Source: a virus
Lineage: Duplodnaviria > Caudoviricetes
IMG/VR virus record: IMGVR_UViG_3300046012_001130
Coordinates: 1-58,426 of that record
DNA length: 58,426 bases
Direction: 5' to 3' (one strand)
Made by a program: the position numbers and the translations under genes. Shown here in pieces: positions 615 to 56,868 of this stretch. Each line of letters opens with the position of its first letter. Position 1 is the first letter of the stretch. A model generated the notes under the pieces. It saw nothing but the letters and a program-made list of their open reading frames with translations, was not told the origin of the DNA and ran no database searches.

Positions 615-2417
615 TTGGAAGTCTGGGACCTCTCCTGCAAAGATTGGGAACAACGGCTCACCGGTGGCCGTGCCCCTGTCGCGGACCTGCCACTGCTCAA
701 TGTCGTCGAGGCGGACCGCGCGCTCGCCATGTTCGACATGCTTCGGCTGCCCGACGTGCCAGGCACGCCGCTGCTCGCAGACGCCGCCGGCGACTGGTTT
801 CGCCAGTCGATCGTGCGCCCCGCCTTTGGTTCCTGGGATGAAGAGCGCCAGGAGCGCTACATCCGCGAAGTCTTCCTGCTGGTCGGCAAGAAAAATTCGA
901 AGACCTCCTACGGCGCCGGCCTCAGTCTGGTCTGGCTGCTTTACAATCGCCGCCCCAACGCCGAAGGCATCCTCGTCGCGCCGACGCAGGACATTACCGA
1001 CATCGCCTTCAGCCAGGCCGAAGGCATGGTGCGGCTCGATCCGCGCCTCAACCGCAAACGCCTGCGCGTCCAGAACAACCTAAAGCGCATCACCAATCTC
1101 ATTACCGGTGCGACGCTCGAAATTTTGACCTTCGACCCGAAGATTCTCACCGGCCAGAAGCCGGCCTTCTGGCTGCTCGACGAGATCCACGTTCTCTCGC
1201 GCATGTCGAACGCGGCCTCCGCCATCGGCCAGCTTCGCGGCGGCATGATCAGCCAGCCCGAAGCGCTCGGCATCATGATCACCACGCAATCGGACCGACC
1301 GCCCGCCGGCATCTTCAAGACCGAGCTGGTCAAGGCCCGCAACATCCGCGACGGCATCGACCGTTCGACCCGCATGTTGCCGGTGCTCTACGAATTTCCG
1401 CGTGCCATCGCCGCCTCGCGCGAGCTCTGGAGCGATCGCAAGGTCTGGCACATGGTCGTGCCGAACGACGGCCGCTCGATCACCGTCGAGCGGCTGACGC
1501 AGGAATTCCGCACCGCCGAGCAATCCGGCCCCGAGGAATTGAAGCGCTGGGCCTCGCAGCATCTCAATATCGAGATCGGCATCGGCCTCTCGTCGGACCA
1601 TTGGCCGGGCGCCCGCCACTGGGACAATTGCGCGGACGAGACGTTGACGCTTGCAACGCTGATCGAGCGAAGCGAGGTGGTCACAGTCGGCGGCGACGGC
1701 GGCGGCCTCGACGATATGTTGGGCTTCTGCGCCGTCGGCCGCGAGAAGGAAACGCGCCGCTTCCTCGTCGTCGCTCACGCCTGGATCCACCGTTCGGTGC
1801 TCGATCTGCGCAAGGAGATCGCGTCGAAATTCATCGATCTCGAGACCGACGGCGATCTCACCATCGTCGATCGCATGGGCGACGCCTTCGAGGAATTCGC
1901 CGATCTCTGCGAGCTCGTCAAAAATTCCGGCAAGCTCGCCGAGGTGGGGCTTGATACCGCCGCCGTCGGCCTCATTCCGGACGAGCTAGAATCGAGGGGG
2001 ATTACCGTCGAGGAAAAGCTCATCGCCGGCGTGCGGCAGGGCTGGTCGCTGATGGGTGTCATCAAATCGGTCGAGGATCTGCTGGCGGACGGCGTGCTTG
2101 TGCATGGCGGCCAGGCGCTGATGGCCTGGTGCGTCGGCAATGCCCGGATCGAGCAGCGTGGCAATGCGATCCTGATCACCAAGCAGGCTTCTGGTGTCGC
2201 CAAGATTGACGCGCTGATGGCCTTGCTCGACGCCTTCTGGTGTATGTTGAAGAACCCCGAATCGCGCACCGGCCGCAGCGTCTACGAAGAGATCGCCGCC
2301 CGCGCCCAGGCCGCGAAAGCGGCGACGCCTGACAAGCCGCGGGAGCGTGCCATTGCCACACCTCTCGCCTCGAAAGCCGACCCCGACGACGAGCGCTTCT
2401 GGAACGGCGCTGCTTGA
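615..2417 (+). CDS. terL: Terminase large subunit
   Basis: Walker A-like VGKKNSKTS, Walker B LLDEIH, ITTQ coupling motif, nuclease motifs GGDGGGLDD and KIDALMAL; TTG start. Confidence 0.95.
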   Translation: MEVWDLSCKDWEQRLTGGRAPVADLPLLNVVEADRALAMFDMLRLPDVPGTPLLADAAGDWFRQSIVRPAFGSWDEERQERYIREVFLLVGKKNSKTSYGAGLSLVWLLYNRRPNAEGILVAPTQDITDIAFSQAEGMVRLDPRLNRKRLRVQNNLKRITNLITGATLEILTFDPKILTGQKPAFWLLDEIHVLSRMSNAASAIGQLRGGMISQPEALGIMITTQSDRPPAGIFKTELVKARNIRDGIDRSTRMLPVLYEFPRAIAASRELWSDRKVWHMVVPNDGRSITVERLTQEFRTAEQSGPEELKRWASQHLNIEIGIGLSSDHWPGARHWDNCADETLTLATLIERSEVVTVGGDGGGLDDMLGFCAVGREKETRRFLVVAHAWIHRSVLDLRKEIASKFIDLETDGDLTIVDRMGDAFEEFADLCELVKNSGKLAEVGLDTAAVGLIPDELESRGITVEEKLIAGVRQGWSLMGVIKSVEDLLADGVLVHGGQALMAWCVGNARIEQRGNAILITKQASGVAKIDALMALLDAFWCMLKNPESRTGRSVYEEIAARAQAAKAATPDKPRERAIATPLASKADPDDERFWNGAA

Positions 2418-18044: not shown

Positions 18045-21000
18045 ATGGTTTCGCTCGATCTCATCCGCAAAGTCACCGTGCAATATCAGTCGACCGGCGC
18101 CGAAAAGGCCGCCGCCGATTACGACAAGCTTACCTCAGCACAGGACAAGGCGGCCGCATCAGCGACACGCGTCGAGGCGACGACCGAAAAGCTGTCGCGC
18201 ACGCAATTGAGCGTGTCGGGCGCGACCGAACGTTATGTGCGGGCGATGGACCCTGCCGCCCGCGCGCAGGCGCAGGTTGAGCGCGGCGAGAGGCTGATGG
18301 CGGCGGCCCGCGCCCAGGGCTTGCCGATTACCGCCGCCATGAATAACGCGCTCGAACTCGCGCGCAAGCGGCACGAAGAATATTCGAAAGCAGCCGAGGC
18401 GAACACGCGCGCCATCGGCCTCAATCGCATGCAGATGATGGAATTCGGCCATGTGGCGCGAAGCGTCGCCGATTCCGTCGCGGCGGGCGCCAATCCATTG
18501 CGCGTGCTGAGCCAGGAAGGCGGCCGCGTCGCGCAAATTTTCACCGAAGGCCAGGGCGGCGTTGGCGGCACCTTCAAGGCGCTGACCAGCCAGGTCGGCC
18601 GGCTCGCCTTTTCCTGGGTCGGCCTCGGCCTCGCGGCGGCTGGCGCGAGCGCCATCGGCGCCGGCGCGGCTCTTTCCTGGGCCAGCGCGCAAAGCCGGCT
18701 GGCGGCCTCGCTGAACGGCGTCGGGCGCGCATCAGGGCTTAATCTCGCTGGGCTCAATAGCGCCGCTCGCGCGGCTGCGACGGCCGGCGGCCTTTCGACG
18801 CCTGAAGCCCGCACTCTGATGGCGGGTTTTGCCGGTACGGGGACGATCTCCGGGTCGTTGGGGCAAAGCCTTGCCGGTTCAAGCCGACGCTTCGGCGACA
18901 TAACCGGCCAGTCGACGGCCGATGCCGGTGCCATGCTCGCGAAGCTCTTTGCCGATCCGAGCGCCGGCGCCAAGGGATTGTCTAAAATATTCGGCGATCT
19001 CGACGCGCGGACGCTCGAGCTGATTCAATCGGAGCAGGCTAGGGGCGAAATCGTCGCCGCGCAGAAGACCTTACTCGACTCCTTTTCAGCGAGTCTGAAG
19101 GCGGCGACCGATAACACCTGGAAGTTGCAGGACTGGGCGCAGAACGCCAAAAACGCCGGCGCCAATTTCCTCGATCGGATCGGCGCCGGCATCGCCGAAT
19201 TGGTCGCGAAGCCGCCGCTGGCCGTGCAACAGACCGATATTCAAGCCCAGATCGGCGTTCTGAGCCGGGAGCGAGGGCAGGAGGGCAATGTCGCGCGGCT
19301 GCGCGCGCAATATGAGACGAACCAGCAGATCCTCGATAAGGAGGCGCAGCGGGCGCAGGCGGACGCTCGCCAGCAAGCTGCGACGCGGCTCGGCAATCAG
19401 GCGGCTGATGCGGTACGAGCGGCATTGCCGGATTTCGTCCGTGCCAATAGTCTTGCCGACCGCATCGGCCTGTTGCGCAACGCCGCCGGCAATAGCGATG
19501 CCATGCACGGGCTCGAAGGTTTTGATGTCAACGGCGCGCTGTCGCGCAGCCTCATGCAGCAGCGTAATCTCGATCCCGGCCGTCGTGCCGCGCAGGACGA
19601 TCTGCTTTCCATTCAAAATAGCCAGGCTCGCACGCTGGCGGAGAAAATTGCCGTCGATGCCGAAAAGGCGCGGCTTCAAGTGCTGCGCGATACGGGCGAT
19701 GCGTTGCAGGCGGCCGCCGCGGCGGAATCGGCTCGCAACGAACAGATCGCCGCCGCCAACCGTCAGGCCCAGGATGTGGTGAAACAATCGGGCCGCGATT
19801 TGCAAATGGCCGGAATGTCGCCCTATCAGCGGGGACGGCAAGAGATTGAGAATCGTTTTGCCGATTTGCGCGAGCAGTTGACGGCTTCGCCGACTCAACT
19901 CGCCAATGCGATGAGGCCGCAATTCTCCACCGATATCGACCGGCTCGGCGATGCGGCGACGCGGGCCGCCGATGCGCTCGACCGCATCGCTAATGACAAT
20001 TCGCCCTATGGATCGGTTCGGGCTCCCGGTTCTATCAGCGGCGGCGCGTCGGGGCCTTGGGGCTCCGTTCGCGCGCCGGGCTCGATCAGCGGAAATAATC
20101 CCGGCAACCTCGAAGTTTCAAGCTTCAGCGCGGGCCAGCCTGGCTTCATCGGCGGCGGCCGTTTCGCCAGTTTTGCGACACCGGCCGACGGCTACCGCGC
20201 CGCCAACAATCTGCTGACCTCCTATGTTCACCGTGGCTACCGGACGCCGGCTGCAATTATCAACCGCTGGGCCCCGCGCAGCGACGGCAATGATCCGGCG
20301 GCCTACGGCGCCTCGATCGCCAAGATCGCCGGCCTCGATCCGAATGCGACGCTTGGCTTCGACGCACAGTCGCGCTCTCGCCTGCTCTTTGCCATGACGA
20401 AGGTCGAACACGGCTCGTCGCCTTATGGCGAGAGCGCCATCGCCGGCATGTTGCAAGGCAAGGCGCCGGTCGGCCTCACCACCGCAGGAGCGGTCGCCAC
20501 GGCGCACAGCCAATCGGTCGCTGCCTATAATATCGAATCAATTCAACAGCCTTTCAAGCAATCCAATCAAGCGCTCAAGGATCAGAATCTGCTGCTCGAC
20601 GTGCAACAGAAGGCCTTCGGCAAATCGAAAGCTGAACTCGAAGGCCTGCTCGCGGCGCAAAAGCTTTATAATGACTTCACCGACGCCGGTGTGACGGTGA
20701 CGGCGGCCATGAACGAGCAGATCCAGGCTTACGGTGCCGGCGTCACGACGCTGAATCGGCGCCAGGAGCAAATGCAGAGGCAACAGGACGCCATGGGCGC
20801 GGTGCGCGATGTTGGATCTAGCTTTATCGACTCAGTCGCCCAAGGCCTCGCCACGAGGCACCGCAACGTCCACCAGACGATCTTCGGCAGCGCCATGCAT
20901 AGCGTCGGCACGAGCCTTCTCTCCTCCGGCGAGCGCGCTCTGACGGGCGCCTTGTTTGGCGGTGGTCGCGACGGCGGCAACGGCGTTCTAGGCAGCCTCT

Positions 21001-21425
21001 TCGCATCATTGTTCGGCGGCGTTGGCGGCGGCGGCGCGCCGATGCAGCTCCACTTCGCCGGCGGCGGTGTGATGACGTCGCGCGGTCCGCTCGCCTTGCG
21101 GCGCTATGCTGGCGGCGGGGTCGCCGATAGCCCTCAACTCGCCATGTTCGGCGAGGGTTCCGGGCCGGAAGCCTATGTGCCGCTGCCCGACGGGCGTTCG
21201 ATTCCGGTCAATATGCGTGGCCGTTCGGGGCCGGCTCAGCCCGGTCATACCTTCAATAGTTCGACAACGATCGTCATGAATGGCGGCGACGATCCGAAAC
21301 GCCAAGCCTCGCAGCTGCAGGCCGAGCTCGATCGGCGCGACGCAAAGCTCATGCAGAACGTGCAGCGGAATGTCGGGTCGATGCAATCAACCTGGAATCG
21401 CCGCTATGGCAAGGCCGCCGGCTGA
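18045..21425 (+). CDS. Tape measure protein with internal lysozyme-like domain
   Basis: 1126 aa Ala-rich helical ORF; NNPGNL...FATPADG...IINRWAP domain; C-terminal FAGGG/GEGSGPEAYVPL. Confidence 0.9.
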   Translation: MVSLDLIRKVTVQYQSTGAEKAAADYDKLTSAQDKAAASATRVEATTEKLSRTQLSVSGATERYVRAMDPAARAQAQVERGERLMAAARAQGLPITAAMNNALELARKRHEEYSKAAEANTRAIGLNRMQMMEFGHVARSVADSVAAGANPLRVLSQEGGRVAQIFTEGQGGVGGTFKALTSQVGRLAFSWVGLGLAAAGASAIGAGAALSWASAQSRLAASLNGVGRASGLNLAGLNSAARAAATAGGLSTPEARTLMAGFAGTGTISGSLGQSLAGSSRRFGDITGQSTADAGAMLAKLFADPSAGAKGLSKIFGDLDARTLELIQSEQARGEIVAAQKTLLDSFSASLKAATDNTWKLQDWAQNAKNAGANFLDRIGAGIAELVAKPPLAVQQTDIQAQIGVLSRERGQEGNVARLRAQYETNQQILDKEAQRAQADARQQAATRLGNQAADAVRAALPDFVRANSLADRIGLLRNAAGNSDAMHGLEGFDVNGALSRSLMQQRNLDPGRRAAQDDLLSIQNSQARTLAEKIAVDAEKARLQVLRDTGDALQAAAAAESARNEQIAAANRQAQDVVKQSGRDLQMAGMSPYQRGRQEIENRFADLREQLTASPTQLANAMRPQFSTDIDRLGDAATRAADALDRIANDNSPYGSVRAPGSISGGASGPWGSVRAPGSISGNNPGNLEVSSFSAGQPGFIGGGRFASFATPADGYRAANNLLTSYVHRGYRTPAAIINRWAPRSDGNDPAAYGASIAKIAGLDPNATLGFDAQSRSRLLFAMTKVEHGSSPYGESAIAGMLQGKAPVGLTTAGAVATAHSQSVAAYNIESIQQPFKQSNQALKDQNLLLDVQQKAFGKSKAELEGLLAAQKLYNDFTDAGVTVTAAMNEQIQAYGAGVTTLNRRQEQMQRQQDAMGAVRDVGSSFIDSVAQGLATRHRNVHQTIFGSAMHSVGTSLLSSGERALTGALFGGGRDGGNGVLGSLFASLFGGVGGGGAPMQLHFAGGGVMTSRGPLALRRYAGGGVADSPQLAMFGEGSGPEAYVPLPDGRSIPVNMRGRSGPAQPGHTFNSSTTIVMNGGDDPKRQASQLQAELDRRDAKLMQNVQRNVGSMQSTWNRRYGKAAG

Positions 21426-35979: not shown

Positions 35980-37122
35980 TCACCGTTTTTTGCGCGCCTT
36001 CGACGCCGCCTCCATGCCGGCCAGAATCTCTTCGTCGAGCACGTGCGCGTAACGCGTCGTGGTTTCGATCTTCGAATGATGCAGGGCGCGCTGCACGAGC
36101 TTCAGATTGCCGGTCTCGCGCAGCAGCTTGGTTGCAAAGTCATGCCGGAGATCGTGGAAGCGCAGGTCGGCCGGCAGCCGCGCGCCCGTCTTGCGATGGC
36201 GCGAGCGGCGCCACGTCGTCTTCAGTCCGGACTTGGTGATCGGCTGCCTTTCACCCTTCGCGTAAAGTACCTTGCCGCCACGCCGGCACGCGCGGGCCGC
36301 CGCGTAAGTGAAAACATAGAGCGTCGGGTTGGCCATTTCGGCCATCAGGATCATGCGCATCTCGTCGGTGATCGGCTGGCTGATCGGCTTGGCGCCCTTG
36401 CCGATGACATTGATGCGGCCGCCGGCGAGATCGACATCCGTTTTTTTCATCAGGCATTCGGAGAGCCGCAGGCCGGCGGCGCGGGCGAAGGCGACGAGCG
36501 GCCGATAGTCGGCGCGGACAGCGGCGAAACTGTCCTCCTCGGACGCCCTGACCTCGCGCACGCGCTCGCGCGGCTCCTCCAGCATATGCTCAGACCAACG
36601 CGGCGGCTTCGGCAAAACGACGCCCCAGAGTCGTGTGGCGCGGTTGCAGATTTTTTGCAGCACCTCGGTCGTCGAGCGATTGACGGTCGAGGGTGACACA
36701 TGCGGCGCCGGATGCGACTGCTTGGCGTCGAAAGGATCGCGGACGCTCTTGCGGCCCTTGATGGTCTGGGCGCGGCGCCATGCGACGAGCTTGGCGACAT
36801 CGTCGTCGCTGATCTCGTCGAGCCGCTTCGACGGTCCGAAATATTTCTCCAGCCGGTCGAGATTGGCCCAGGTCGTGGTGGCGCCGGCATGGTGCTGGCC
36901 GACCTCGAGCCAATAACGGCCGGCGGCCACGTCGATCGTCATCGGCGCCGAGCCGGTCGCCTGCTCGCGATCGAGATCGACGCGCGCCTTGGCGCGGGCT
37001 TTCTTTTCTATTTCCTTGGCGTCGCTGCGGCTTTTCGAGCGCGTAGATCCGAAAAAGCGACGACCGTCGAGTTCGAAGTCGTAGGTGTAGTACGGCGACT
37101 TTTGCGGCTTGTAGACGGACAT
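35980..37122 (-). CDS. int: Tyrosine integrase
   Basis: GLRLSE, IGKG, FHDLRH, LHH and TTRY catalytic motifs. Confidence 0.95.
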   Translation of the reverse strand: MSVYKPQKSPYYTYDFELDGRRFFGSTRSKSRSDAKEIEKKARAKARVDLDREQATGSAPMTIDVAAGRYWLEVGQHHAGATTTWANLDRLEKYFGPSKRLDEISDDDVAKLVAWRRAQTIKGRKSVRDPFDAKQSHPAPHVSPSTVNRSTTEVLQKICNRATRLWGVVLPKPPRWSEHMLEEPRERVREVRASEEDSFAAVRADYRPLVAFARAAGLRLSECLMKKTDVDLAGGRINVIGKGAKPISQPITDEMRMILMAEMANPTLYVFTYAAARACRRGGKVLYAKGERQPITKSGLKTTWRRSRHRKTGARLPADLRFHDLRHDFATKLLRETGNLKLVQRALHHSKIETTTRYAHVLDEEILAGMEAASKARKKR

Positions 37123-39680: not shown

Positions 39681-39904
39681 TGCGCTTCCCTTTCATCGAG
39701 CACTTCGCCGTGGCGGAATTGATAGGCGCGCAGGCCGTCGCGCATGCAGTTCATGATGCCGCCGCAGATCACGCGGGCTTCGTCGCGCGAGACCTCGCCG
39801 GTCGGCTGCAGGTCGAGGCTGCGGCCGTCCGGCATGGTGATGACGATCCTCACCGCTTCCGATTGGCGGTCGACAAGGGTCAAAATGCAGGGACCAAGGG
39901 CCAT
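39677..39904 (-). CDS. Hypothetical protein, paralog of 39184-39435
   Basis: Same shared motif as its paralog. Confidence 0.7.
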   Translation of the reverse strand: MALGPCILTLVDRQSEAVRIVITMPDGRSLDLQPTGEVSRDEARVICGGIMNCMRDGLRAYQFRHGEVLDEREAQ

Positions 39905-40571: not shown

Positions 40572-41119
40572 GCGTGCCCCATCGGGGGCCTGTGGATTGG
40601 ATCGGTCTCGAGTTTGCGGAAATGCGCTGTCATTGCGAGAATGCGCTGCCAGACGGTTTCGAGATCGGCCTGATCGTCGGCGCGGCTTAGGACTTCGGCC
40701 ATTATCTGGACCAGCGCCTCGACGGCGGCCTCGGATTCCTCCTGGCCAACAGGGCCGCCGCGGTCGATTGCGGCATCGCCATAAAGTGCGCGAGCGACAC
40801 GGCAGGTGATGCATGTGCAAGGAACCGCGGGTGCCTCGCCGCCGGCCTTGGCATCCTTGCCGCGCCGGCGCTCGAAGATTGTCGAGACCGTTTGATGGGC
40901 GAATGCCTCGGCGGCGGAATCCTCGGGAGTCTTTCCGCTAACGGCCCCGAAGGCGCCGGCGGCCTTGAAGATGCACGTGAGCGCGGCGGTAAAAACGACG
41001 GCGAGATAATCCTCGGTGCTGCGCCCGAGCTGCGAGACAGAGTCCACTGCCTTCGAAACGCGCTCCTCGACGAGACGCGATAGGTCGATCATCACGTGGT
41101 CGGCGAGTTTTTCGCTCAT
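40568..41119 (-). CDS. Hypothetical protein
   Basis: Coupled ORF; contains CTCITC. Confidence 0.55.
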   Translation of the reverse strand: MSEKLADHVMIDLSRLVEERVSKAVDSVSQLGRSTEDYLAVVFTAALTCIFKAAGAFGAVSGKTPEDSAAEAFAHQTVSTIFERRRGKDAKAGGEAPAVPCTCITCRVARALYGDAAIDRGGPVGQEESEAAVEALVQIMAEVLSRADDQADLETVWQRILAMTAHFRKLETDPIHRPPMGHA

Positions 41120-43011
41120 TCCGCGGCCTCGCTGGCGGCGAGAATTGCTTCGTCGGCCTCGATTGCATCGAGCATGGCCTCGGCGAGCGTTGGGCCGGGG
41201 GCCGCTGCGACAGGGGCCTCGGGGCCGGCCGGCAGATCAGCCCAGCGAGCGAAGGGCTGTGGCAGCCATTGGCGATCGCGGGCGAGCGTCGCGGCCGCCT
41301 CGGCCGCTGCTTCGCGCTTCAGCTTCTTTGCGGCGATGCCGGCGGCCTGGCCGTCCATCGCCTCGATGGCGGCCACGGAGGCCGCCTTGGCGGCAAGGCC
41401 AAAATAAAGGCTTGGGTCGAAGTGCTGGAGCAGATCGGCGCCGAGCGCACCGGCGCGGGCCTGGATCCCGGCAGCGAGCGGATCGATCTCGCTCATCGAT
41501 GTCGCGCCGGCCGGATAGATCGAGGCGGCGATCAATTCTCCGAAGGCCGCAACGAGATCGACGAGCGGCACCGCGCCTGTGATCGCCAGGGCGGTCTTGA
41601 ACCGGTAAGGGCGCATCGAAAAAAGGCGCGCGAGCAATTCGTTGCTTGTGCCGGAAAGATCGGTCTGCGTGGAATCGAGGAGCACGAAGCCGCGGGAATC
41701 ATAGTCCCTCTTGACGAGCGCGGCGATCGCGATCGCCAGTGCGATGTCAGGACGCGCCATGATGGCGCTGCGGAAGGCCTTGGTGGCGACCTCGTCGAGC
41801 ATCTGGCGGAGGTTTTTGCCGGGCTCTTCGGGGGCCTCCGGCTCCGCCTTCGGCGTTTTGCCAGAGCTGGTTGGGGCGCTGACGCGGTCCCCGATATCGC
41901 CCGCAGGCTCGCGCGAAACGAAGGCCGCCTTGCGTTGCAGGCCGCGCTCGATCGAGAGGCGGCCGTCCTGGATGGTGGCGCAGATGCCGAGGATGGCGCG
42001 CGCCGTCTGCGGTATGGCCCGCAAGATTGCTTTGGCCTCGATTACATCCAGCCGCGCGTCGATCGCGGCGGCGCGTGCGTCATCATCGTTGTCTTCCGCT
42101 TCGGCGCGGAGGGTGGCGCGCTCGCTGTCCTCGTCTTCGAGATAATCCGGTTCGAATTGCGATTGTTGATAATCGCGCCGCTCGGCCTGCGGCACGACAA
42201 AGCCCCAGCCTTCCTCGAAAGCCGCATCGCCAGCTTCACGCGCTAGCTTTTCGAGTGCGAGCTTTTTGGCAAGCGTGCCGTCGAGCCAGACGATCTCTTC
42301 GGCAAAGAGCGAATCCTCGATACGACCACCGGCGGCGAGATAATCGGCATCGCCGACGTAGAGCGCCTCGTCGTCATTCGCCGCGATCCAATCGGCGATC
42401 AGCGCCTTGCGTACTGAATAGTCTGCGTTTTGGAGGTTCCTGGCCTTCAGCGAGTCAAACACGGCGATCTGCGCTTCGTGCGTCTCGCCGGTCGCATAGG
42501 CTTCGGCCGCTTCGGCGTCGATGACGCCGGCGCGCCAGGCTGCGCGCAGCGCCGGCGCCAGGCGCGCGAGTTTGAGGGCGCGACGGACGCGTCTCGGTGT
42601 GGTGCCGAAGGCGGTGGCGATCGCCGCAATATCGCGGCCCGATGCCTCGAGATCCGCGAAGGCCTCATATTCGGCGACGGGATGCAAATCGGCCCGCATG
42701 ACATTCAGCGCCAGCGCCGTCTCGCGCATGACGTCCTCGGCGCCGTCGGCGCAGATCTCGATCGGCACGCGGCGGCTGCCATCGGGAGAGAGCTGCCGCA
42801 GCGCCAGGTAACGGCGGCGACCGTCGAGCACGCGATAACCCTCGCCGGTCATCTCCTCGCAGAGCAGCGGCTGCAGCAGGCCGGAAGCCCCGATCGAGGC
42901 GGCGAGCGCGTCGATGCCGTCATCGGCCGGCTCGCCGAAGCGCGGATTATAAGGCGAGATGCCCTCGATGGCGGAGAGCGCGACGGTGGCGCGGACCGGA
43001 TTCAGCATCAT
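41116..43011 (-). CDS. ParB/Srx-family protein with HTH
   Basis: NPR, LAASI...GLLQPL, DGRRRY and HPVAEYEAF motifs followed by an HTH. Confidence 0.85.
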   Translation of the reverse strand: MMLNPVRATVALSAIEGISPYNPRFGEPADDGIDALAASIGASGLLQPLLCEEMTGEGYRVLDGRRRYLALRQLSPDGSRRVPIEICADGAEDVMRETALALNVMRADLHPVAEYEAFADLEASGRDIAAIATAFGTTPRRVRRALKLARLAPALRAAWRAGVIDAEAAEAYATGETHEAQIAVFDSLKARNLQNADYSVRKALIADWIAANDDEALYVGDADYLAAGGRIEDSLFAEEIVWLDGTLAKKLALEKLAREAGDAAFEEGWGFVVPQAERRDYQQSQFEPDYLEDEDSERATLRAEAEDNDDDARAAAIDARLDVIEAKAILRAIPQTARAILGICATIQDGRLSIERGLQRKAAFVSREPAGDIGDRVSAPTSSGKTPKAEPEAPEEPGKNLRQMLDEVATKAFRSAIMARPDIALAIAIAALVKRDYDSRGFVLLDSTQTDLSGTSNELLARLFSMRPYRFKTALAITGAVPLVDLVAAFGELIAASIYPAGATSMSEIDPLAAGIQARAGALGADLLQHFDPSLYFGLAAKAASVAAIEAMDGQAAGIAAKKLKREAAAEAAATLARDRQWLPQPFARWADLPAGPEAPVAAAPGPTLAEAMLDAIEADEAILAASEAAE

Positions 43012-49244: not shown

Positions 49245-49786
49245 GCGAGACGCGGCGCGGCGATTGGATTCAGACTTACACCGGTGGCGCCTTCTGGCCG
49301 CTCGACCCGCGCGAGGATGAGATACGTCTGGCGGATATTTCCCATGCACTCGCCTTTCAATGTCGCTTTGGCGGTCATTGCCGGCGCTTTTACAGCGTCG
49401 CCGAACATTGCGTGTTGCTCTCCTATCTCGTCGAGCCGCAGGCTGCGTTGCTGGCGCTGATGCATGATGCGGCGGAAGCCTATCTCGTCGATCTGCCGAG
49501 ACCGGTGAAGCGCAGCCTCGTCGGCTATGAGATGATCGAGCGGCAGCTCGAGTTGATGATCTTCAAGAAGTTCGGCGTCGGCCTCACATATTGGGAACAC
49601 GTGCGCGACTGCGATCGTCGCATTCTGACGGACGAAGCTCGGCAGAACATGGCGCCGCCGCCGCGGCCCTGGTCGACGCTGGCGGCCCCGCTTGGTGCGA
49701 CGCTGATGTTCTGGAAGCCGGAAGACGCGGAACATTATTTCGCGCGGCGGTATGATGCCCTTGCGACGACAGTCGAGGCGACATGA
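49241..49786 (+). CDS. HD-domain phosphohydrolase (YfdR-like)
   Basis: DISHAL...CRFGGH...YSVAEH...LMHDAAEAYLVD. Confidence 0.9.
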   Translation: MSETRRGDWIQTYTGGAFWPLDPREDEIRLADISHALAFQCRFGGHCRRFYSVAEHCVLLSYLVEPQAALLALMHDAAEAYLVDLPRPVKRSLVGYEMIERQLELMIFKKFGVGLTYWEHVRDCDRRILTDEARQNMAPPPRPWSTLAAPLGATLMFWKPEDAEHYFARRYDALATTVEAT

Positions 49787-50664
49787 GCGCGCCCGCCATG
49801 CGGCTTTCCGTTTCCGCTCTGTCGCTCTCCGGCTTCGTTCGGCCGCGTACGAATGCCGCGCCCGGCCGGCCGCCGGAGCTGCGCTGGATTGACATCGACT
49901 GCCTTTATGTCGATCGCGATTATCAGCGCGAGATCCTGCGCGCCGGACGCGACAACATTCTAAAGATCGCCGGCGCCTTCAACTGGGCCTTTTTCGCGCC
50001 GGTCGTGGTGGCGCCGCTCGAAGGCAGCGACGATTTCTTTGTCATCATCGACGGCCAGCATCGCTGCATGGCGGCGAAGCTCATGCAGCACACGCAGGTG
50101 CCGTGTTCGATCATCACGGCCGACCGAGCACAGCAGGCCCGCGCTTTCGCCGCGATCAACGGTAATGTGACGGCAATAAGCTCGCTGTCGCGATTCAAGG
50201 CGCTGCTGGCCTCCGGCGACGCGAACGCGCTGCGCACCGATCGCGTTGCCGCCGAGGCAGGCGTGAAAATTCTGCGCGTAAATGCCTCGAGCAAGGCGAT
50301 GAAAGCGCATGAGACAACGGCGCTCAACGCCATCGATAAGTCGATCGCGGCCTATGGCGAGCGCGTCGTCAAAAAATCGCTCGAAGGCATTCTCGCTTCA
50401 GCGAAGGGGCGACCGCATTATCTGCAGCATCCAATCATCTGCTCGGTGACGCGAGTCCTCGCCGGCGATGCCGGCTGGCTCGCATCGCCCTATCTGATGG
50501 AGGCGTTCGAGGCGATCGACCTGCGCGCGGCGCTGGTTGAGGCTCGCAGCGAGCATGCGGCGAGTCCTGGCCGCAACATCGCCGATTTTATCGACGCGCC
50601 GCTGATCGTGCATCTCGGGGAATTTCTTGAGGAACGCGCCGAGTCTCAGTCGAGGGGAGGGTAG
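49783..50664 (+). CDS. ParB-N/DUF6551-like protein
   Basis: VDRDYQR, IIDGQHR and FAAIN motifs. Confidence 0.8.
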   Translation: MSAPAMRLSVSALSLSGFVRPRTNAAPGRPPELRWIDIDCLYVDRDYQREILRAGRDNILKIAGAFNWAFFAPVVVAPLEGSDDFFVIIDGQHRCMAAKLMQHTQVPCSIITADRAQQARAFAAINGNVTAISSLSRFKALLASGDANALRTDRVAAEAGVKILRVNASSKAMKAHETTALNAIDKSIAAYGERVVKKSLEGILASAKGRPHYLQHPIICSVTRVLAGDAGWLASPYLMEAFEAIDLRAALVEARSEHAASPGRNIADFIDAPLIVHLGEFLEERAESQSRGG

Positions 50665-51019: not shown

Positions 51020-51366
51020 TCTCGAGCCATACGCCGCCGGGAACGAAGGTGCTCTATCGGCCGGACGGGGACCCGAGCGCCGATGATTTCGCCATCGCCG
51101 CCGAGTTACCCGCTCTATCGGAGGGCGGCCATTATACGCTGCATCGGATCGTCGAATGCGATGACATGTCCTTCGGCGTCGCCCTGCTCGAAACCGCCGC
51201 CGCCCAGGGAAAGCCGGTGCCGGTGACGCTGAACGGCAAGAAGTGGTCAGCATTCCTGTTTTATCGTTTGGAGGATTTCGTGCCGGCGGCGCTGCCGCAA
51301 TGCCTGACCGAGCTGCTCGATGTGGCGCCCGTCGATGCCGAGCGCGGCGTGTCGGAGCCCGCATGA
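51016..51366 (+). CDS. Hypothetical protein
   Basis: ATGA coupling on both sides. Confidence 0.55.
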   Translation: MISSHTPPGTKVLYRPDGDPSADDFAIAAELPALSEGGHYTLHRIVECDDMSFGVALLETAAAQGKPVPVTLNGKKWSAFLFYRLEDFVPAALPQCLTELLDVAPVDAERGVSEPA

Positions 51367-52598
51367 ACCGGCGTGCCGAACAAAAACATTCCGACGCCTT
51401 CGAGGCCTGGATCGAGGAGGCGCGGAAGGTCACGGTCACGGCCTATCTGCAAAAGCGCGGGCATTGGGACAAGAAGATGATCGGCGACGCCGGCGTCCCT
51501 TGCCCGGGCTGCGGCGGCACCGATCGCTTCGCGGTGAACACGCGCAAGAATGTCTTTTTCTGTCGGGCGTCAGGCGCGGCGGGCGATGCCATCGCGGCGG
51601 CCGAGCATATATTCGGCCTGCCGTTTCTCGACGCGGTCGAAGATGTCGCCGGCCTGCCGCCGCCTGAGCGCGAAGCCCGAGAGAGCGCGGCCGATCGCGA
51701 CAGCAGGGTCGCACGGCTCGCGCGGCAGCAGGCGGAAGCGGCGGAAAAGCAGAAGATCGACGCGGCCGAGGCCAACCATTATCGCGACCGTGAGCGACGC
51801 GAGGGCTTCCGGCTTTGGCAACAGGCGCTGCCGATATCGGGCACACCGGTCGAGGAATATCTGGCGCTGCGCCGGCTCGCCGCGCCTGGCTCGGCGCATC
51901 TGCGCTACATGCCGTCGGCGCGCTATTGGCACAAGCCGCCGCCGGATGGCGCCTGCCTGCATGTCGGCCCGGCGATGGCGGCGGCGATCGTCGGGCCGCA
52001 CGGGCGATTCATCGGGCTGCATCGCACCTGGATCGATCTCGCGCAGCCGAAGGGCAAGCTCGTGCCTGTCGATCCGGAGACCGGCGAAATATTGAAGGCA
52101 AAGAAGACGCGCGGCTCCTGGAAGGGTGGCTCGATCCTTGTGGCGCGGGCGGAGGGCCCGCCGGAGTTTTTCGTCGCCGGCGAAGGCATCGAGACCGTGC
52201 TCGGCTTTCGCGCCATGATGCTTCTCGACGATCCCGGCTTCGTAGCGCGGGCCGAATTCCGCGCGGCGGTGTCGCTCGATAATCTCGGCGGCAAGGCGGC
52301 CGGCCGCGTCGCCCATCCGACCGAGACCAAGGTCGATCGCCGCGGCCGCGTCCGGCATGTGCTGATCGGCTCCGACGAGCCCGAGCCGTTCGACGATCTG
52401 CCGCTGATCCGCGTGCCCGGGTGCGTCGAAGAGATCGTGCTGCTGCGCGACGGCGACAGCGAGCCGGCGCGCACGTCCAACGCCATGACGCGGGCGGCGA
52501 AGCGCTTCCATGCGGCCTATCCTCATTGCGGCGTCAAGATCGTCGCGGCGGCCGAAGGCGAGGATTTTGGCGACAGCTGGATCAGGAGGGCGGCGTGA
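51363..52598 (+). CDS. DNA primase (Zn finger plus Toprim)
   Basis: PCPGCGGTDRF, FFCR, HRTW, GEGIET, DGD and GEDF motifs. Confidence 0.85.
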   Translation: MNRRAEQKHSDAFEAWIEEARKVTVTAYLQKRGHWDKKMIGDAGVPCPGCGGTDRFAVNTRKNVFFCRASGAAGDAIAAAEHIFGLPFLDAVEDVAGLPPPEREARESAADRDSRVARLARQQAEAAEKQKIDAAEANHYRDRERREGFRLWQQALPISGTPVEEYLALRRLAAPGSAHLRYMPSARYWHKPPPDGACLHVGPAMAAAIVGPHGRFIGLHRTWIDLAQPKGKLVPVDPETGEILKAKKTRGSWKGGSILVARAEGPPEFFVAGEGIETVLGFRAMMLLDDPGFVARAEFRAAVSLDNLGGKAAGRVAHPTETKVDRRGRVRHVLIGSDEPEPFDDLPLIRVPGCVEEIVLLRDGDSEPARTSNAMTRAAKRFHAAYPHCGVKIVAAAEGEDFGDSWIRRAA

Positions 52599-53329
52599 TG
52601 AATGTGCAGACGGCGATGAGCGCGGCATTCGAGCGGGTGGGTATGGACGGGTCGGGCGAGCGGCTGTTCGCGGCGGCGGCGAAGGCGCTGCGTGGTGAAG
52701 TGCAGCCGCACCGCGCCCTGGCGCCGTTTCTGGCGGCGCTGGAGCGCGATCGCGGAGCGCTGCGGGCGCTGGCGCTCGGCTATCTCGAAGAACGGGCCGC
52801 GGATATGCGCGGCGACGAATTGCGCGGGGGCGGCCAGAATACGAGTGCTCGAAAGGGCCAGAGCATCAGTGCCGCGCCCGCGCAAGACGATGAAAATCAG
52901 AGTTCGCGCGACGGGGGACCTGAAGGGTTTGCCCCAGAGGGCCATGTGACAAGTGCCCCCGTCGCGTGTCCGAACGAGGAAGTCGGCGGCCAGGGGATTT
53001 GTGCCACCTACGCGGCCGGGAAAACCATGCCGCCGCCTTCCTCACCGCGCCGCACCGGCACGCCGCGGCCGCTCGCCGTCATGTCAAGCGTGCAGGCCGT
53101 CATCGGCCGCTCGCTGTTCGACACCCACAGGCTTCGCGACGGCCGCGCCATCGGCGATATCCTCTGGCGCGACCTGCTGGCGCTGGCTGGTCGCGACGAA
53201 AAAGAAGCGGCGCTGCTGCGCGCCATCGCCGGCCACGTCGCCAATGCGCCGGCCGCCGCGCTGGTGCGCGAAGTCGTGTCGGAGAAGGTGGTCGCGGCGG
53301 CGATCGCCGCGGCCGAGGCGGTATCATGA
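52598..53329 (+). CDS. Hypothetical protein whose central linker is encoded by three TIGR-like units
   Basis: AGGAGG RBS; coupled on both sides; helical N- and C-domains with a low-complexity linker. Confidence 0.65.
   Translation: MNVQTAMSAAFERVGMDGSGERLFAAAAKALRGEVQPHRALAPFLAALERDRGALRALALGYLEERAADMRGDELRGGGQNTSARKGQSISAAPAQDDENQSSRDGGPEGFAPEGHVTSAPVACPNEEVGGQGICATYAAGKTMPPPSSPRRTGTPRPLAVMSSVQAVIGRSLFDTHRLRDGRAIGDILWRDLLALAGRDEKEAALLRAIAGHVANAPAAALVREVVSEKVVAAAIAAAEAVS
52820..53043 (+). ncRNA. Stem-loop TIGR-like guide array, units 1-3
   Basis: Three hairpins (52820-52885, 52905-52968, 52976-53043), each stem-CCA-N9-TG-small hairpin-CCA-N9-TG-stem; one box is ACC and one CCG. Confidence 0.8.
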
Positions 53330-54189
53330 ATCGCGACGCGCTCGCCGCGGTCTGCCTGCAGCTGATGGAGCTGCAAAGCGCCCGCAAACATTATATCGGC
53401 CTCGCCAACAAGCTCACCAATGCGCAGCAGGCGCGCATCCGCCGGGCGCTGGGCTGGCGGCCCGACGGCGGCGAAGCATCCAGGAAGGCGATCAATCAGC
53501 GCGCGTCGCACGTCATGCAGGCGGTGCGGATGCGCGATTCGAAACAGGCCAAGCCGCCGAAAGAAGAGGACGCGCCGATCATTGCGGCGCTGCGCGAAGA
53601 AATCGTCGTCACCCTGCAAAGCCTGGAGCCGAGCGCGAAGGCGCGTGCGGCGGTCGAGAAGGAAATGGCGCGGCTGGCGCGGACGCTGCCGGCCTATGCG
53701 TGGGTAAAGGGCGTGCGCGGCTTCGGCGATCTCGGCTTCGCCGTCACTATCGGAGAATGTGGCGATCTGCTGCTTTATTCGACGCCCGACAAAGTGTGGA
53801 AGCGCTGCGGCCTGGCGCCGTATGACGGCAAGGCCTATTCGAGCTGGCGGCGCGAGGGTGGCCTGACGAAGGAGCAATGGACCGATGCCGGCTACAAGCC
53901 GGGGCGGCGGGCGGAGATTCACGCCTGCGTCACCGAGAGCCTGCTGAAGCTGCAAAAGCCCGGCATGGCCTATCGCGACATCTATGATCTCAGGCGAGCG
54001 AACCGCGCCGTCAACCGGCCGGAATGGTCGAAGGGGCATTCGCATTTCGATGCGATGCGGGTGATGACGAAGATGCTGCTTTCCGACCTCTGGTCGGAAT
54101 GGCGGAGGGCCGCGATTATTGTGCCCGAAGGGGCCATGCATGCCGTGCCCTCCGCCGAGATTCACGCGGCGGCGGAGGCCCGCGCATGA
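53326..54189 (+). CDS. TasA-like Nop-domain protein (IS110 Tnp20-related, no RuvC/HNH)
   Basis: Coiled coil, then VKGVRGFGDLGFAVTIGECGDLLLYSTPDKVWKRCGLAP, YRDIYDLRR and HSHFDAMRVMTKMLLSDLW; no DEDD domain and no QSG serine motif. Confidence 0.8.
   Translation: MNRDALAAVCLQLMELQSARKHYIGLANKLTNAQQARIRRALGWRPDGGEASRKAINQRASHVMQAVRMRDSKQAKPPKEEDAPIIAALREEIVVTLQSLEPSAKARAAVEKEMARLARTLPAYAWVKGVRGFGDLGFAVTIGECGDLLLYSTPDKVWKRCGLAPYDGKAYSSWRREGGLTKEQWTDAGYKPGRRAEIHACVTESLLKLQKPGMAYRDIYDLRRANRAVNRPEWSKGHSHFDAMRVMTKMLLSDLWSEWRRAAIIVPEGAMHAVPSAEIHAAAEARA
54101..54156 (+). ncRNA. Stem-loop TIGR-like unit 4 inside the 3' end of the tas gene
   Basis: GGCGGAGGG-CCG-cgattattg-TG-CCCGAAGGGG-CCA-tgcatgccg-TG-CCCTCCGCC. 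Confidence 0.8.
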
Positions 54190-54491
54190 CCGCTCCCGCG
54201 CCGACCCTTCTGATCCGCATCCGGCTGCTAAGGGATCGCCGCAGCGACCTGCTGCTGGCCGGCAGCGGCGATCTGCCGGGCCTGCATGTGCATGCTTATT
54301 CTCCGGCTGAAATCGACATAAAGCTGCCGGCGGCGATCCGGGAGCTCCTGGAATTGCGCGGCGCGACGATCGACCGGATCGACACGGCCGATGCCGATGC
54401 GAAGGGCTTCGTCATGTGGCCCTCGACCTATCGCGTGAGTTGTATCGAAATGCCGGTTTCGGGGACTTTCGGACGGGAAACGGACGCGTGA
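54186..54491 (+). CDS. HicB/DUF1902-like protein
   Basis: SGDLPGLHVHAYSPAEI..KLPAAIRELL; ATGA-coupled to tas. Confidence 0.55.
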   Translation: MTAPAPTLLIRIRLLRDRRSDLLLAGSGDLPGLHVHAYSPAEIDIKLPAAIRELLELRGATIDRIDTADADAKGFVMWPSTYRVSCIEMPVSGTFGRETDA

Positions 54492-54745
54492 TCCTCGAAC
54501 CGCGAATCAATGTGGTGCCGCGGCCTCTTCGCGCGCCATCCCAGAAGCTGCATCGCAATCCGCTGCTGCAGAAACGGCGTTATCGCATGCCGCGCTGGTG
54601 GCCTTGGCGGGATCGACAAAGTGCGACGGCTCTCAGGGCCGAGATCGGCAAGGCGGTGCCCGGCCGCTTTCGACATCGCTCGGAGCCTGCTTTTCTGACG
54701 GCGTCAGCAAAGATGCCGGTGCCCGACCTCATGGCGACCGCATGA
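54488..54745 (+). CDS. Hypothetical basic protein
   Basis: GTGA and ATGA coupling on both sides. Confidence 0.4.
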   Translation: MILEPRINVVPRPLRAPSQKLHRNPLLQKRRYRMPRWWPWRDRQSATALRAEIGKAVPGRFRHRSEPAFLTASAKMPVPDLMATA

Positions 54746-56550
54746 CAGTGCCGCTCGACGAGCCCGAATCCCCTCGTATCGGCGCGACGATTGTCGCTTT
54801 TCCGCGTGGAACCCGCCCGTTGCCCGCGCCGGCCGAGCCGCGAAGCGGCGAAGATGAGCCATCTTCCCAGACGGGAGGATCGCGGCCTTCGGGAGACGAC
54901 AAGCCGCCGGGCGCGCACGACGGCGGCCGGGGACGCGGGCGGCGCGGCGGCGGCGACTCCGACGATGGCGACGATGCGGCGGATCTCAACCGGAGACTGG
55001 CGCTGCTGCCGCTCACCGATCTCGGCAACGCCGAACGTTTCGCGGCGCGCAACGAAGGCCGCTTTCTCTATTGCCCGGCGCTCGGCTGGCTCTGGTGGGA
55101 CGGTCGGCGCTGGTCGCGCGTCGGCGCCGAAGAGGCGGTGAAGCGGGCCGAACACGAGACGATCCGCGCCATTCAGGATGAGGCCAAGGCGCTGCGCGAT
55201 TCCGAACAGGATGTCGAGCTGAAGGAAGAGGTGAAGCGGCTGAAGGACGGCGCGGTGATGACGCCGGCTATCTGGCTCTCCGACCTCGTCGCGCGACACG
55301 GCCGCGCCTCGGAATCGGCGCAGCGCCTCGGCTCGGTGTCGAAACGCGCCGCCGCCATGCTGGCGATCGACGTTGCCGATCTCGACGCCGATCCGTGGCG
55401 CATCAACGTGCTGAACGGAACGCTGGTCGTTAAAAAAACGATTATCGAGTTGGCCGACGGGCACCCTGTCGAGCGCCCTGTGGATGCCGATTACATCACG
55501 CTGGTGCCGCACGCGCCGGAGCATCGCATCACCAAGCTCGCGCCGGTGATCTTCGATCCGGCCGCCGATTATCCGTTGTTCAAAGCCTTCCTCGATCGCG
55601 TGCAGCCACCGGATTCAAAAGGCGAGCGGCGGATGCAGAAATTTCTGGCGCAATGGGCGGGCTATGCGCTGACCGGTTCGATCGCCGAACAGAAGATGAC
55701 GTTTCATTACGGGAAAGGCCGCAACGGCAAGGGCGTCTGGGTCAATGCGCTGTCGCATGTCGCCGGCGACTATGCCGATGCGATCCCGATCGAGAGCTTC
55801 ATGGATTCGGGCCGGGCGCGGGCCGGCGGCCAGGCGACGCCCGATATCGCCGGCGTCGTCGGCGTGCGGTTTCTGACGACCTCCGAGCCAAAGAAGAATG
55901 CCGTCCTCGACGATGCCTTCATCAAGCTCTTCACCGGTGGCGACAAGATCAAGGCGCGCTTTCTGAACCGCGATTATTTCGGCTTCGTGCCAGTCGCCAA
56001 GCTGACCATGCAGGGCAATTACCGGCCGAAGGCGCCGACCGACGAGGGGTTGTGGAGCCGGCTGCTGCTGGTGCCCTGGGGCGTCTTCATCCCGCCGGAG
56101 GAGCGCGACCAGCAGCTCGGCGACAAGCTGCGCGCCGAGGCTTCCGGCATCCTGAATTGGATGCTCGACGGGCTGCGCTCCTGGCTCGACGAAGGGCTGA
56201 AGCTGCCGGACGAAGTCTCCAAGGCGACGGAGGACTATCGCAGCGACAGTGATCCGCTCGGCCGCTTCCTCGGCGTCTGCACGATGCAGGACATCGGCCA
56301 TCGCGTGCAGGCGAGCGACATGCACGCACTGTTCATCGCCTGGGCGAAAGCCAATGGCGAAAGCGAGTGGAGCATGAAGGGGCTCGCGGCCGCGCTGAAA
56401 GAGCGAGGCATCGCCTCGATCAAGAGCTCGTCGACCTTCTGGCTGGACCTGAAGCTGACGAAGCACGTGCATGATTTCGTCGATTACGAGGGCAAGCCGA
56501 TCCGCATGCGGGACGAATCGGACGGCGCGAGTTTTGAGGAGCTTCCGTGA
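54742..56550 (+). CDS. P4/D5-family SF3 helicase (primase-helicase C-terminal part)
   Basis: TDLGNAERF, INVLNG, Walker A GKGRNGKG, TGGDKIKARFL and SDPLGRFL motifs. Confidence 0.92.
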   Translation: MTVPLDEPESPRIGATIVAFPRGTRPLPAPAEPRSGEDEPSSQTGGSRPSGDDKPPGAHDGGRGRGRRGGGDSDDGDDAADLNRRLALLPLTDLGNAERFAARNEGRFLYCPALGWLWWDGRRWSRVGAEEAVKRAEHETIRAIQDEAKALRDSEQDVELKEEVKRLKDGAVMTPAIWLSDLVARHGRASESAQRLGSVSKRAAAMLAIDVADLDADPWRINVLNGTLVVKKTIIELADGHPVERPVDADYITLVPHAPEHRITKLAPVIFDPAADYPLFKAFLDRVQPPDSKGERRMQKFLAQWAGYALTGSIAEQKMTFHYGKGRNGKGVWVNALSHVAGDYADAIPIESFMDSGRARAGGQATPDIAGVVGVRFLTTSEPKKNAVLDDAFIKLFTGGDKIKARFLNRDYFGFVPVAKLTMQGNYRPKAPTDEGLWSRLLLVPWGVFIPPEERDQQLGDKLRAEASGILNWMLDGLRSWLDEGLKLPDEVSKATEDYRSDSDPLGRFLGVCTMQDIGHRVQASDMHALFIAWAKANGESEWSMKGLAAALKERGIASIKSSSTFWLDLKLTKHVHDFVDYEGKPIRMRDESDGASFEELP

Positions 56551-56607: not shown

Positions 56608-56858
56608 ATCCTCCCAACCTCCCAAAATTGGGAGGATCGTCGCGCCCGCAACCCGTTGATAAGACGGGCGATGGGAGGGTGTGGGCGGATAGGGAGGATT
56701 TCTGCACGCTCCATGTAACGCGCGCACATGCGCGTGTGCGCGCACATATGAGACATATGAAATAATCCTCCCTAACCTCCCAAACCCTCCCAAACACAAT
56801 CAAATCAATCACTTGACTTGGGAGGGTTTGGGAGGATGCGGGTTACTTAGGGAGGATC
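56608..56858. repeat. Iteron-like CCTCCC(A/T)A repeats in both orientations (putative origin)
   Basis: About 11 CCTCCC/GGGAGG copies, a central GCGC-rich palindrome and an A-rich tract, directly after the helicase. Confidence 0.65.
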
Positions 56859-56868
56859 GTCGAAATGG

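Follow-up and report, generated by a model that had tools for sequence, protein, structure and literature searches.

What four hairpin-forming segments and a gene for a Nop-domain protein do side by side in a phage is the question raised by one locus of the IMG/VR virus record IMGVR_UViG_3300046012_001130. The whole record, a virus contig of 58,426 bp with 64% G+C, was analysed and is referred to here as the window. The locus comprises four hairpin units (U1 to U4), the gene tasA, and a companion open reading frame, ORF243, immediately upstream of tasA. A preliminary description of this DNA had taken it for an RNA-guided system resembling TIGR-Tas, the systems defined by Faure et al. 2025 [PMC12045711], which include stem-loop arrays associated with TasA, and had assigned it a protein that lacks a nuclease. 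The fold of the protein, and the guide grammar found both in the window and in related loci, support that reading. The locus is very probably a stem-loop TIGR-TasA system, carried by a temperate siphovirus in its rightward early/replication operon.

Guide units in the window

All four hairpin units listed in the preliminary description are present on the plus strand, at the coordinates in Table 1 and with the parse given there. Each follows the plan stem, CCR or ACC (box C), nine nucleotides (N9), TG (box D), loop, CCR, N9, TG and stem, and the two 9-nt spacers per unit were confirmed in all four. The closing stems of U1, U2, U3 and U4 extend over 14, 13, 14 and 10 positions, respectively, when G-U pairs and one mismatch are allowed. 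Stem sequences are unrelated from one unit to the next, yet are complementary within each unit, and the predicted RNA fold of every unit includes the closing stem (z-scores in Table 1 are relative to dinucleotide shuffles).

The strict grammar, CCR-N9-TG-loop 8-14-CCR-N9-TG, was searched over both strands of the whole window. Nine matches were found when no stem was required, and a stem of at least 7 pairs reduced these to three, which are U1, U3 and U4. Allowing ACC as box C gains U2 and one weak 7-pair match at 39829; with 9 or more stem pairs required, only the four units are left. In 100 dinucleotide-preserving shuffles of the window, units with a stem of at least 9 pairs occurred at a mean of 0.01 and a maximum of 1. 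The observation of four units is far beyond chance; the grammar was chosen after the finding had been seen, but is the published grammar.

No convincing fifth unit was detected, as a very relaxed scan (two box mismatches, spacers of 8-10 nt) returned noise on both strands. A palindrome at 36868-36897, inside the integrase gene, fits the grammar only if the first spacer is taken as 8 nt and the loop as 3 nt, does so on both strands, and is most likely a chance match.

A Tas protein without a nuclease

The protein predicted from tasA had been described as a coiled coil joined to a Nop/IS110-type core without a nuclease domain, and this holds in both the AlphaFold2 model and the structural matches. 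The protein has no Pfam match, with PF01548 and PF02371 undetected at E 0.1, and belongs to PHROG family phrog_4285 (2.6e-18), which is labelled 'transposase'. When the single sequence was searched against all PDB sequences, only TasR [9MTY, the structure of Faure et al., PMC12045711] was recovered (5e-6). A profile of 24 homologs matched the same TasR entry at 4.5e-12, TasH at 0.011 and the IS110-family protein ISCro4 at 0.2, leaving TasR as the only significant solved relative by sequence.

The AlphaFold2 model (predicted local distance difference test, pLDDT, 88.6; predicted template modelling score, pTM, 0.82) is all-helical, with no strands of three or more residues. Three long helices span the N-terminal 118 residues and are followed by a compact helical core and a low-confidence tail, giving an architecture of N-terminal coiled coil, Nop-type RNA-binding core and disordered tail from about residue 264. 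The chain ends in this tail after the Nop core, and tasA holds a conserved position in phage operons. Its product has a Nop/IS110-like fold that comes closest to Tas proteins, the top ten Foldseek matches in the PDB all being TasR or TasH chains. These matches start at about residue 65 of TasH and 111 of TasR, past their nuclease domains, and in IS621 and ISCro4 the aligned part begins at residue ∼121-125, with no DEDD/RuvC-like domain found in the window protein. Neither a fibrillarin-binding N-terminal domain nor a K-turn/L7Ae-dependent guide RNA was found. As the matches are to Tas proteins, and the alignment begins only after the nuclease domains of TasH and TasR, the 287-aa protein is a nuclease-less Tas protein, i.e. 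TasA. The reading frame is intact and has 14 invariant columns in common with its homologs.

TasA is a member of a large family. Among 1.84 billion cluster representatives, a profile recovered 4,908 proteins at E ≤0.001 and 1,881 at ≤1e-30, and the best relatives are about 50% identical to TasA. One bacterial copy (48% identical) is found in a Bradyrhizobiaceae metagenome-assembled genome (MAG), and cultured-phage records hold four weak relatives, each annotated as hypothetical. Many of the Tas relatives among the cluster representatives carry 100-260 extra N-terminal residues compared with this TasA, and these longer N-termini fit the disordered, possibly guide-bearing extensions described for TasA.

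Guide grammar in related viral loci

The comparison set consisted of 72 loci from the viral collection that encode relatives of TasA (23-51% identity); all were turned so that tas reads along the plus strand. A search for the strict grammar that required 9-nt spacers, loops between 6 and 20 nt and at least 8 stem pairs found 45 units on the plus strand and none on the minus strand. Controls matched for information content, with altered boxes or with spacer lengths of 7, 8, 10 or 11 nt, gave 0-1 matches. The strict grammar with loops of 3-25 nt detected 141 units on the tas strand, in 50 of the 72 loci, against 0 on the opposite strand. When one box mismatch was allowed and a stem of at least 9 pairs required, the numbers were 194 and 5, with units in 54 loci. 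Homologous loci therefore keep the CCA and TG boxes around variable 9-nt spacers, under the strict grammar on the tas strand only, as expected if the preliminary description was correct.

Box C is CCA at the first position in 156 of the 194 units and at the second in 150, and box D is TG in 176 and 174, respectively. The spacers show no positional bias and 169 are distinct among the 194 units. Loops are 4 nt long in 123 units and 10 nt long in 33. Eight loci without a strict match (L003, L004, L005, L008, L009, L058, L061 and L066) have CG for box D, with both positions changed in most of their units, and a CG-box-D grammar applied to the 19 loci without a match found 21 units on the tas strand and 2 on the other. 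A pattern finder restricted to TG would consequently miss the arrays of these eight loci. The occurrence of CG at both box D positions is the kind of box-pair covariation described by Faure et al. [PMC12045711].

Units with a 10-nt loop could be aligned without gaps (34 units, including three from the window). In this alignment, the helix internal to the loop, which played no part in choosing the units, has 94.9% pairing, and three of its four pairs show compensatory changes. Over the full structure 90% of positions are paired, compared with 61.5% for shuffled partners and 36-47% for partners slid along the sequence.

Guides within coding sequence

All four units are intragenic, a feature absent from the preliminary description. 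U4 lies in the codons of the C-terminal tail of TasA, and U1, U2 and U3 are in frame in a linker of the ORF243 product. The 5′ stem of U4 corresponds to the codons of a conserved W-R-R, and in the protein alignment of homologs the footprint of the boxes is seen as WRRA-x3-[VLM]P-xx-A-xxx-[VLM]P, the residues between being variable. Many relatives carry a unit at the 3′-end of tas, in the same place as U4 but with other spacers.

ORF243 predicts a protein with conserved N- and C-terminal domains separated by the variable, guide-bearing linker. The gene is coupled translationally at both ends, its start overlapping the primase stop codon (TGATG) and its stop overlapping the start of tasA (ATGA); a further ATGA joins tasA to ORF101. 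Homologs of ORF243 were detected by tblastn directly upstream of tas in 20 of the 72 loci, in several of them as one alignment spanning both ends, and a profile of the C-terminal domain found homologs in 35 of 73 loci. No family was found for the predicted protein in Pfam, PHROG, PDB or Atlas. The N- and C-terminal parts of the gene are coding-like, with G+C contents of 0.81-0.86 at the third codon position and 0.51-0.55 at the second. In the guide stretches, G+C is flat across codon positions 1, 2 and 3 (0.68/0.63/0.67 in 52823-53041 and 0.74/0.61/0.77 in 54094-54186), and codon preference there seems to give way to constraints on the RNA. Of 21 distinct units in the companion genes of relatives, 18 share the codon phase of U1-U3, three are in another phase and none is in the third.

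It is possible, though doubtful, that ORF243 is a working part of the TIGR system of this clade, its linker serving as a guide array held in one frame. Excision of the guides would then destroy the messages for both the companion and TasA, coupling guide production to effector dosage, and the companion may be a cofactor for processing or targeting. Guides placed in an adjacent gene are not mentioned in the consulted passages of the TIGR-Tas papers, nor did a full-text literature search bring up such a case.

The location in coding sequence could also mean that the hairpins are not guides at all, but by-products of peptide repeats in low-complexity linkers, ordinary mRNA structures (attenuators or REP-like elements, for example), or the remains of an IS110 element and its bridge RNA. 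The linker peptides do look repetitive (G-Q/H ... S-A-P), and the 'transposase' label of the protein family points the same way. However, stems that share no sequence between units are always complementary, the boxes and the 9-nt spacing are fixed while the rest varies, and a strand ratio of 141 to 0 is not expected from peptide repeats or plain palindromes. No T-runs follow the units and no terminator-like site is located at any of them; Rfam has no match at any unit, and the protein has no RuvC/DEDD domain. We consider such an origin of the hairpins highly improbable.

Phage genome and operon

PHROG matches reveal the gene layout of a temperate siphovirus (Table 1), and the carrier is a temperate soil phage. 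No close relative of it is present in the cultured-phage collection. The tasA locus is located inside a rightward operon in the order ParB-like DUF6551 gene, primase, ORF243, tasA, ORF101 and D5-type primase/helicase. ORF101 belongs to no Pfam or PHROG family, and no counterpart was found 3′ of tas among the 72 related loci.

Table 1. Guide units, genes of the tasA operon and other annotated genes of the window.
Feature	Position	Strand	Details
U1	52820-52885 including stem; core 52834-52871	+	CCA-N9-TG-loop 10-CCA-N9-TG; minimum free energy -39.7 kcal/mol, z -5.2
U2	52905-52968 including stem; core 52918-52955	+	First box ACC, loop 10 nt; z -3.8
U3	52976-53043 including stem; core 52990-53029	+	CCA-N9-TG-loop 12-CCG-N9-TG; z -3.9
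U4	54100-54157 including stem; core 54110-54147	+	In codons of TasA C-terminal tail; z -3.3
ParB-like DUF6551 gene	49783-50664	+	tasA operon, 2.7 kb upstream of tasA
Primase	51243-52598	+	Zinc ribbon, DUF7146, Toprim; phrog_510, 2.7e-53; directly precedes companion gene
ORF243	52598-53329	+	Companion gene, 243 aa
tasA	53326-54189	+	287-aa nuclease-less Tas protein
ORF101	54186-54491	+	Between tasA and D5-type gene
D5-type primase/helicase	54598-56550	+	PF08706, 7.6e-24; phrog_1156, 5.8e-106
Terminase	615-2417		Followed by portal, protease and major head protein; PHROG
Tape-measure protein	18045-21425		Followed by tail fibre and endolysin; PHROG
Integrase	35980-37122	-	PHROG
Methyltransferases and ligase			Further PHROG-matched genes in the same layout
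Single-stranded DNA-binding protein (SSB); HNH gene at right end			PHROG

No counterpart of the DUF6551 ParB-like gene was found within 4 kb of tas in any of the 72 related loci, so the arrangement is probably not the published tasParB one. The phage has a second ParB-like gene at 41116-43011 on the minus strand.

An intergenic cluster at 56608-56862, just 3′ of the D5-type gene, contains a GGGAGGAT / TTGGGAGG motif about 12 times, in either orientation, and a perfect inverted repeat of 18 nt (56776-56793 with 56818-56835) is part of it. The cluster resembles an iteron-type replication origin and gives rise to spurious matches to microRNA precursors in Rfam. Between the iteron blocks, at 56720-56760, is an alternating purine-pyrimidine palindrome of repeated GCGCGCACAT with arms at 56720-31 and 56732-43, followed by two ACATATGA repeats.

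Targets and possible function

From the 8-nt 3′ overhang described for TasR by Faure et al. [PMC12045711], the target was deduced to read as spacer A and then the reverse complement of spacer B on one strand. The phage contig contains five matches with 4 mismatches to the four spacer pairs, which look like chance (3-4 are expected by our own estimate). Cross-targeting among the related loci was also searched; the 198 spacer pairs gave 6 one-mismatch matches, compared with 1 for mispaired and 5 for reversed controls, and no signal is evident. The viral collection was scanned for exact matches to spacer A, 0-2 nt and the reverse complement of spacer B, in that geometry only.

A genuine TIGR-TasA system might act on the DNA of the phage itself, by marking an origin, by aiding the integrase through bending, or in partition. 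The system lies between the primase and the D5-type helicase in the replication operon, a ParB-like gene is 2.7 kb upstream and the origin-like iteron cluster 2.4 kb downstream, and Faure et al. [PMC12045711] discuss an association with ParB and the help that bent DNA could give to integrases. Yet no sequence in the 58-kb genome comes within 3 mismatches of any of the four spacer pairs, whichever geometry is used, which argues against a self-directed role, and the ParB-like, primase (2 of 72 loci) and D5-type genes are not conserved beside tas in related loci. A role on the phage's own DNA is unlikely.

Several observations weigh against the identification of the locus as a stem-loop TIGR-TasA system. 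The array is small, with four guides. The first box of U2 is ACC, two departures from CCA, making one of the eight box C motifs non-canonical, and U2 may be a degenerate or weakened unit. The CUU processing motif is absent from the stem bases of all four units in the window, and in relatives it is barely enriched over a background of 10.5% (5′ base, 20 of 173 units; 3′ base, 34 of 173). Near-duplicate loci are included in the counts, the 198 units (194 from relatives and four from the window) representing 173 distinct ones. The outer stem shows changes on both sides in 12 of 13 pairs of the 34 loop-10 units, a statistic that is partly circular, the units having been chosen by stem complementarity. 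The target searches also count here. An 18-bp site search had been suggested in the preliminary description, and was negative in the phage contig (all four spacer pairs, at up to 3 mismatches, in either geometry) and, for U1, in all 401 genomes searched from the order of the Bradyrhizobiaceae MAG. The viral collection supplied a few exact matches in unrelated sequences, five for U1 (in three unrelated groups), one for U3 and none for U2 or U4, which, in a scan that had no control pattern, are indistinguishable from chance.

Only four units, a degenerate box C in U2, stem bases without CUU and searches that found no site would also suit a decaying or inactive remnant, descended from TIGR-TasA but with guides that are no longer processed or used. 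Against this, the tasA frame is intact, keeps its 14 invariant columns and predicts a confident fold, three units have perfect boxes, with stems of 10-14 positions, and tasA is tightly coupled to its neighbours in an intact phage genome. Decay is quite unlikely as an explanation.

For a stem-loop TIGR-TasA system, we infer the expression and processing of the guides, assembly of the ribonucleoprotein, DNA binding, repression and the nature of the target as follows. The operon transcript would carry the four hairpin units, and each could be freed as a tigRNA. The long closing stem and the small internal loop would each offer one subunit of the TasA dimer a UG (box D)/CCA (box C) pair, leaving two exposed 9-nt spacers to pair with opposite strands of one 18-bp DNA site. 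Because TasA has no nuclease, the complex would be expected to bind and bend the DNA, blocking transcription or other transactions at the site, rather than to cut it. The target would most likely be in the host or a competing mobile element and not in the phage itself. A role as a programmable DNA binder or repressor would agree with the RNA-guided transcription repression demonstrated for another TasA by Xu et al. [10.64898/2026.09.09.750476].

Comparison with known systems

The locus adds a well-documented natural TIGR-TasA example in a complete temperate phage genome, whose host is high-GC and probably alphaproteobacterial. The guides of this clade are embedded in protein-coding sequence, that of a neighbouring conserved gene included. 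The Y/H dyad used for self-processing is reportedly missing from stem-loop Tas proteins, and intragenic guides bear on how stem-loop tigRNAs mature without it, as well as on why array finders confined to intergenic sequence miss such loci. The fully intragenic array and the conserved companion gene give the locus an added interest beyond the known kind that is modest.

Xu et al. [10.64898/2026.09.09.750476] catalogued 2,559 stem-loop arrays, and reported that guides can sit in disordered regions of the tas coding sequence and that a CUU motif at processed ends is frequent but not defining. Cryo-electron microscopy structures of PlTasA with a stem-loop guide are described by Guan et al. [10.64898/2026.08.11.744272], PlTasA having come from a Peromyscus leucopus gut contig [PMC12045711]. 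The likeness to PlTasA, and to the BlTasA and MbTasA of Xu et al., is drawn from their published descriptions, not from sequence, and consists of a nuclease-less Nop-domain protein with a coiled coil and a phage origin. The window shares with published stem-loop TasA systems the two-spacer hairpins in which each spacer lies between box C (CCA) and box D (UG), the variable closing stems, and units both upstream of tas and in its disordered coding regions. Unlike the systems described so far in those sources, all four units are intragenic, three of them in a neighbouring conserved gene, the stem bases have no CUU and the array is small.

The dual-repeat nucleases TaTasR [9MTY] and SpTasH [9VZX, 21KL and others] differ in having a RuvC or HNH domain, which the window protein lacks, and in using 36-nt dual-repeat guide units where the window has stem-loop units. 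Compared with the IS110 bridge-RNA recombinases IS621 [8WT6] and ISCro4 [9T56], TasA has neither the DEDD/RuvC domain nor the recombinase C-terminal part; several short guides replace the one bridge RNA, and tasA is a conserved gene of phage operons, not a mobile element. The similarity to Prp31 and to the core proteins of box C/D small and small nucleolar ribonucleoproteins (Nop5, Nop56/58) is distant, as TasA is without the fibrillarin-binding domain, the K-turn/L7Ae partner and the methylation function, and the Tas family targets DNA. The stem-loop TIGR-TasA kind is already published, and the locus described here is a genuine further example of it.

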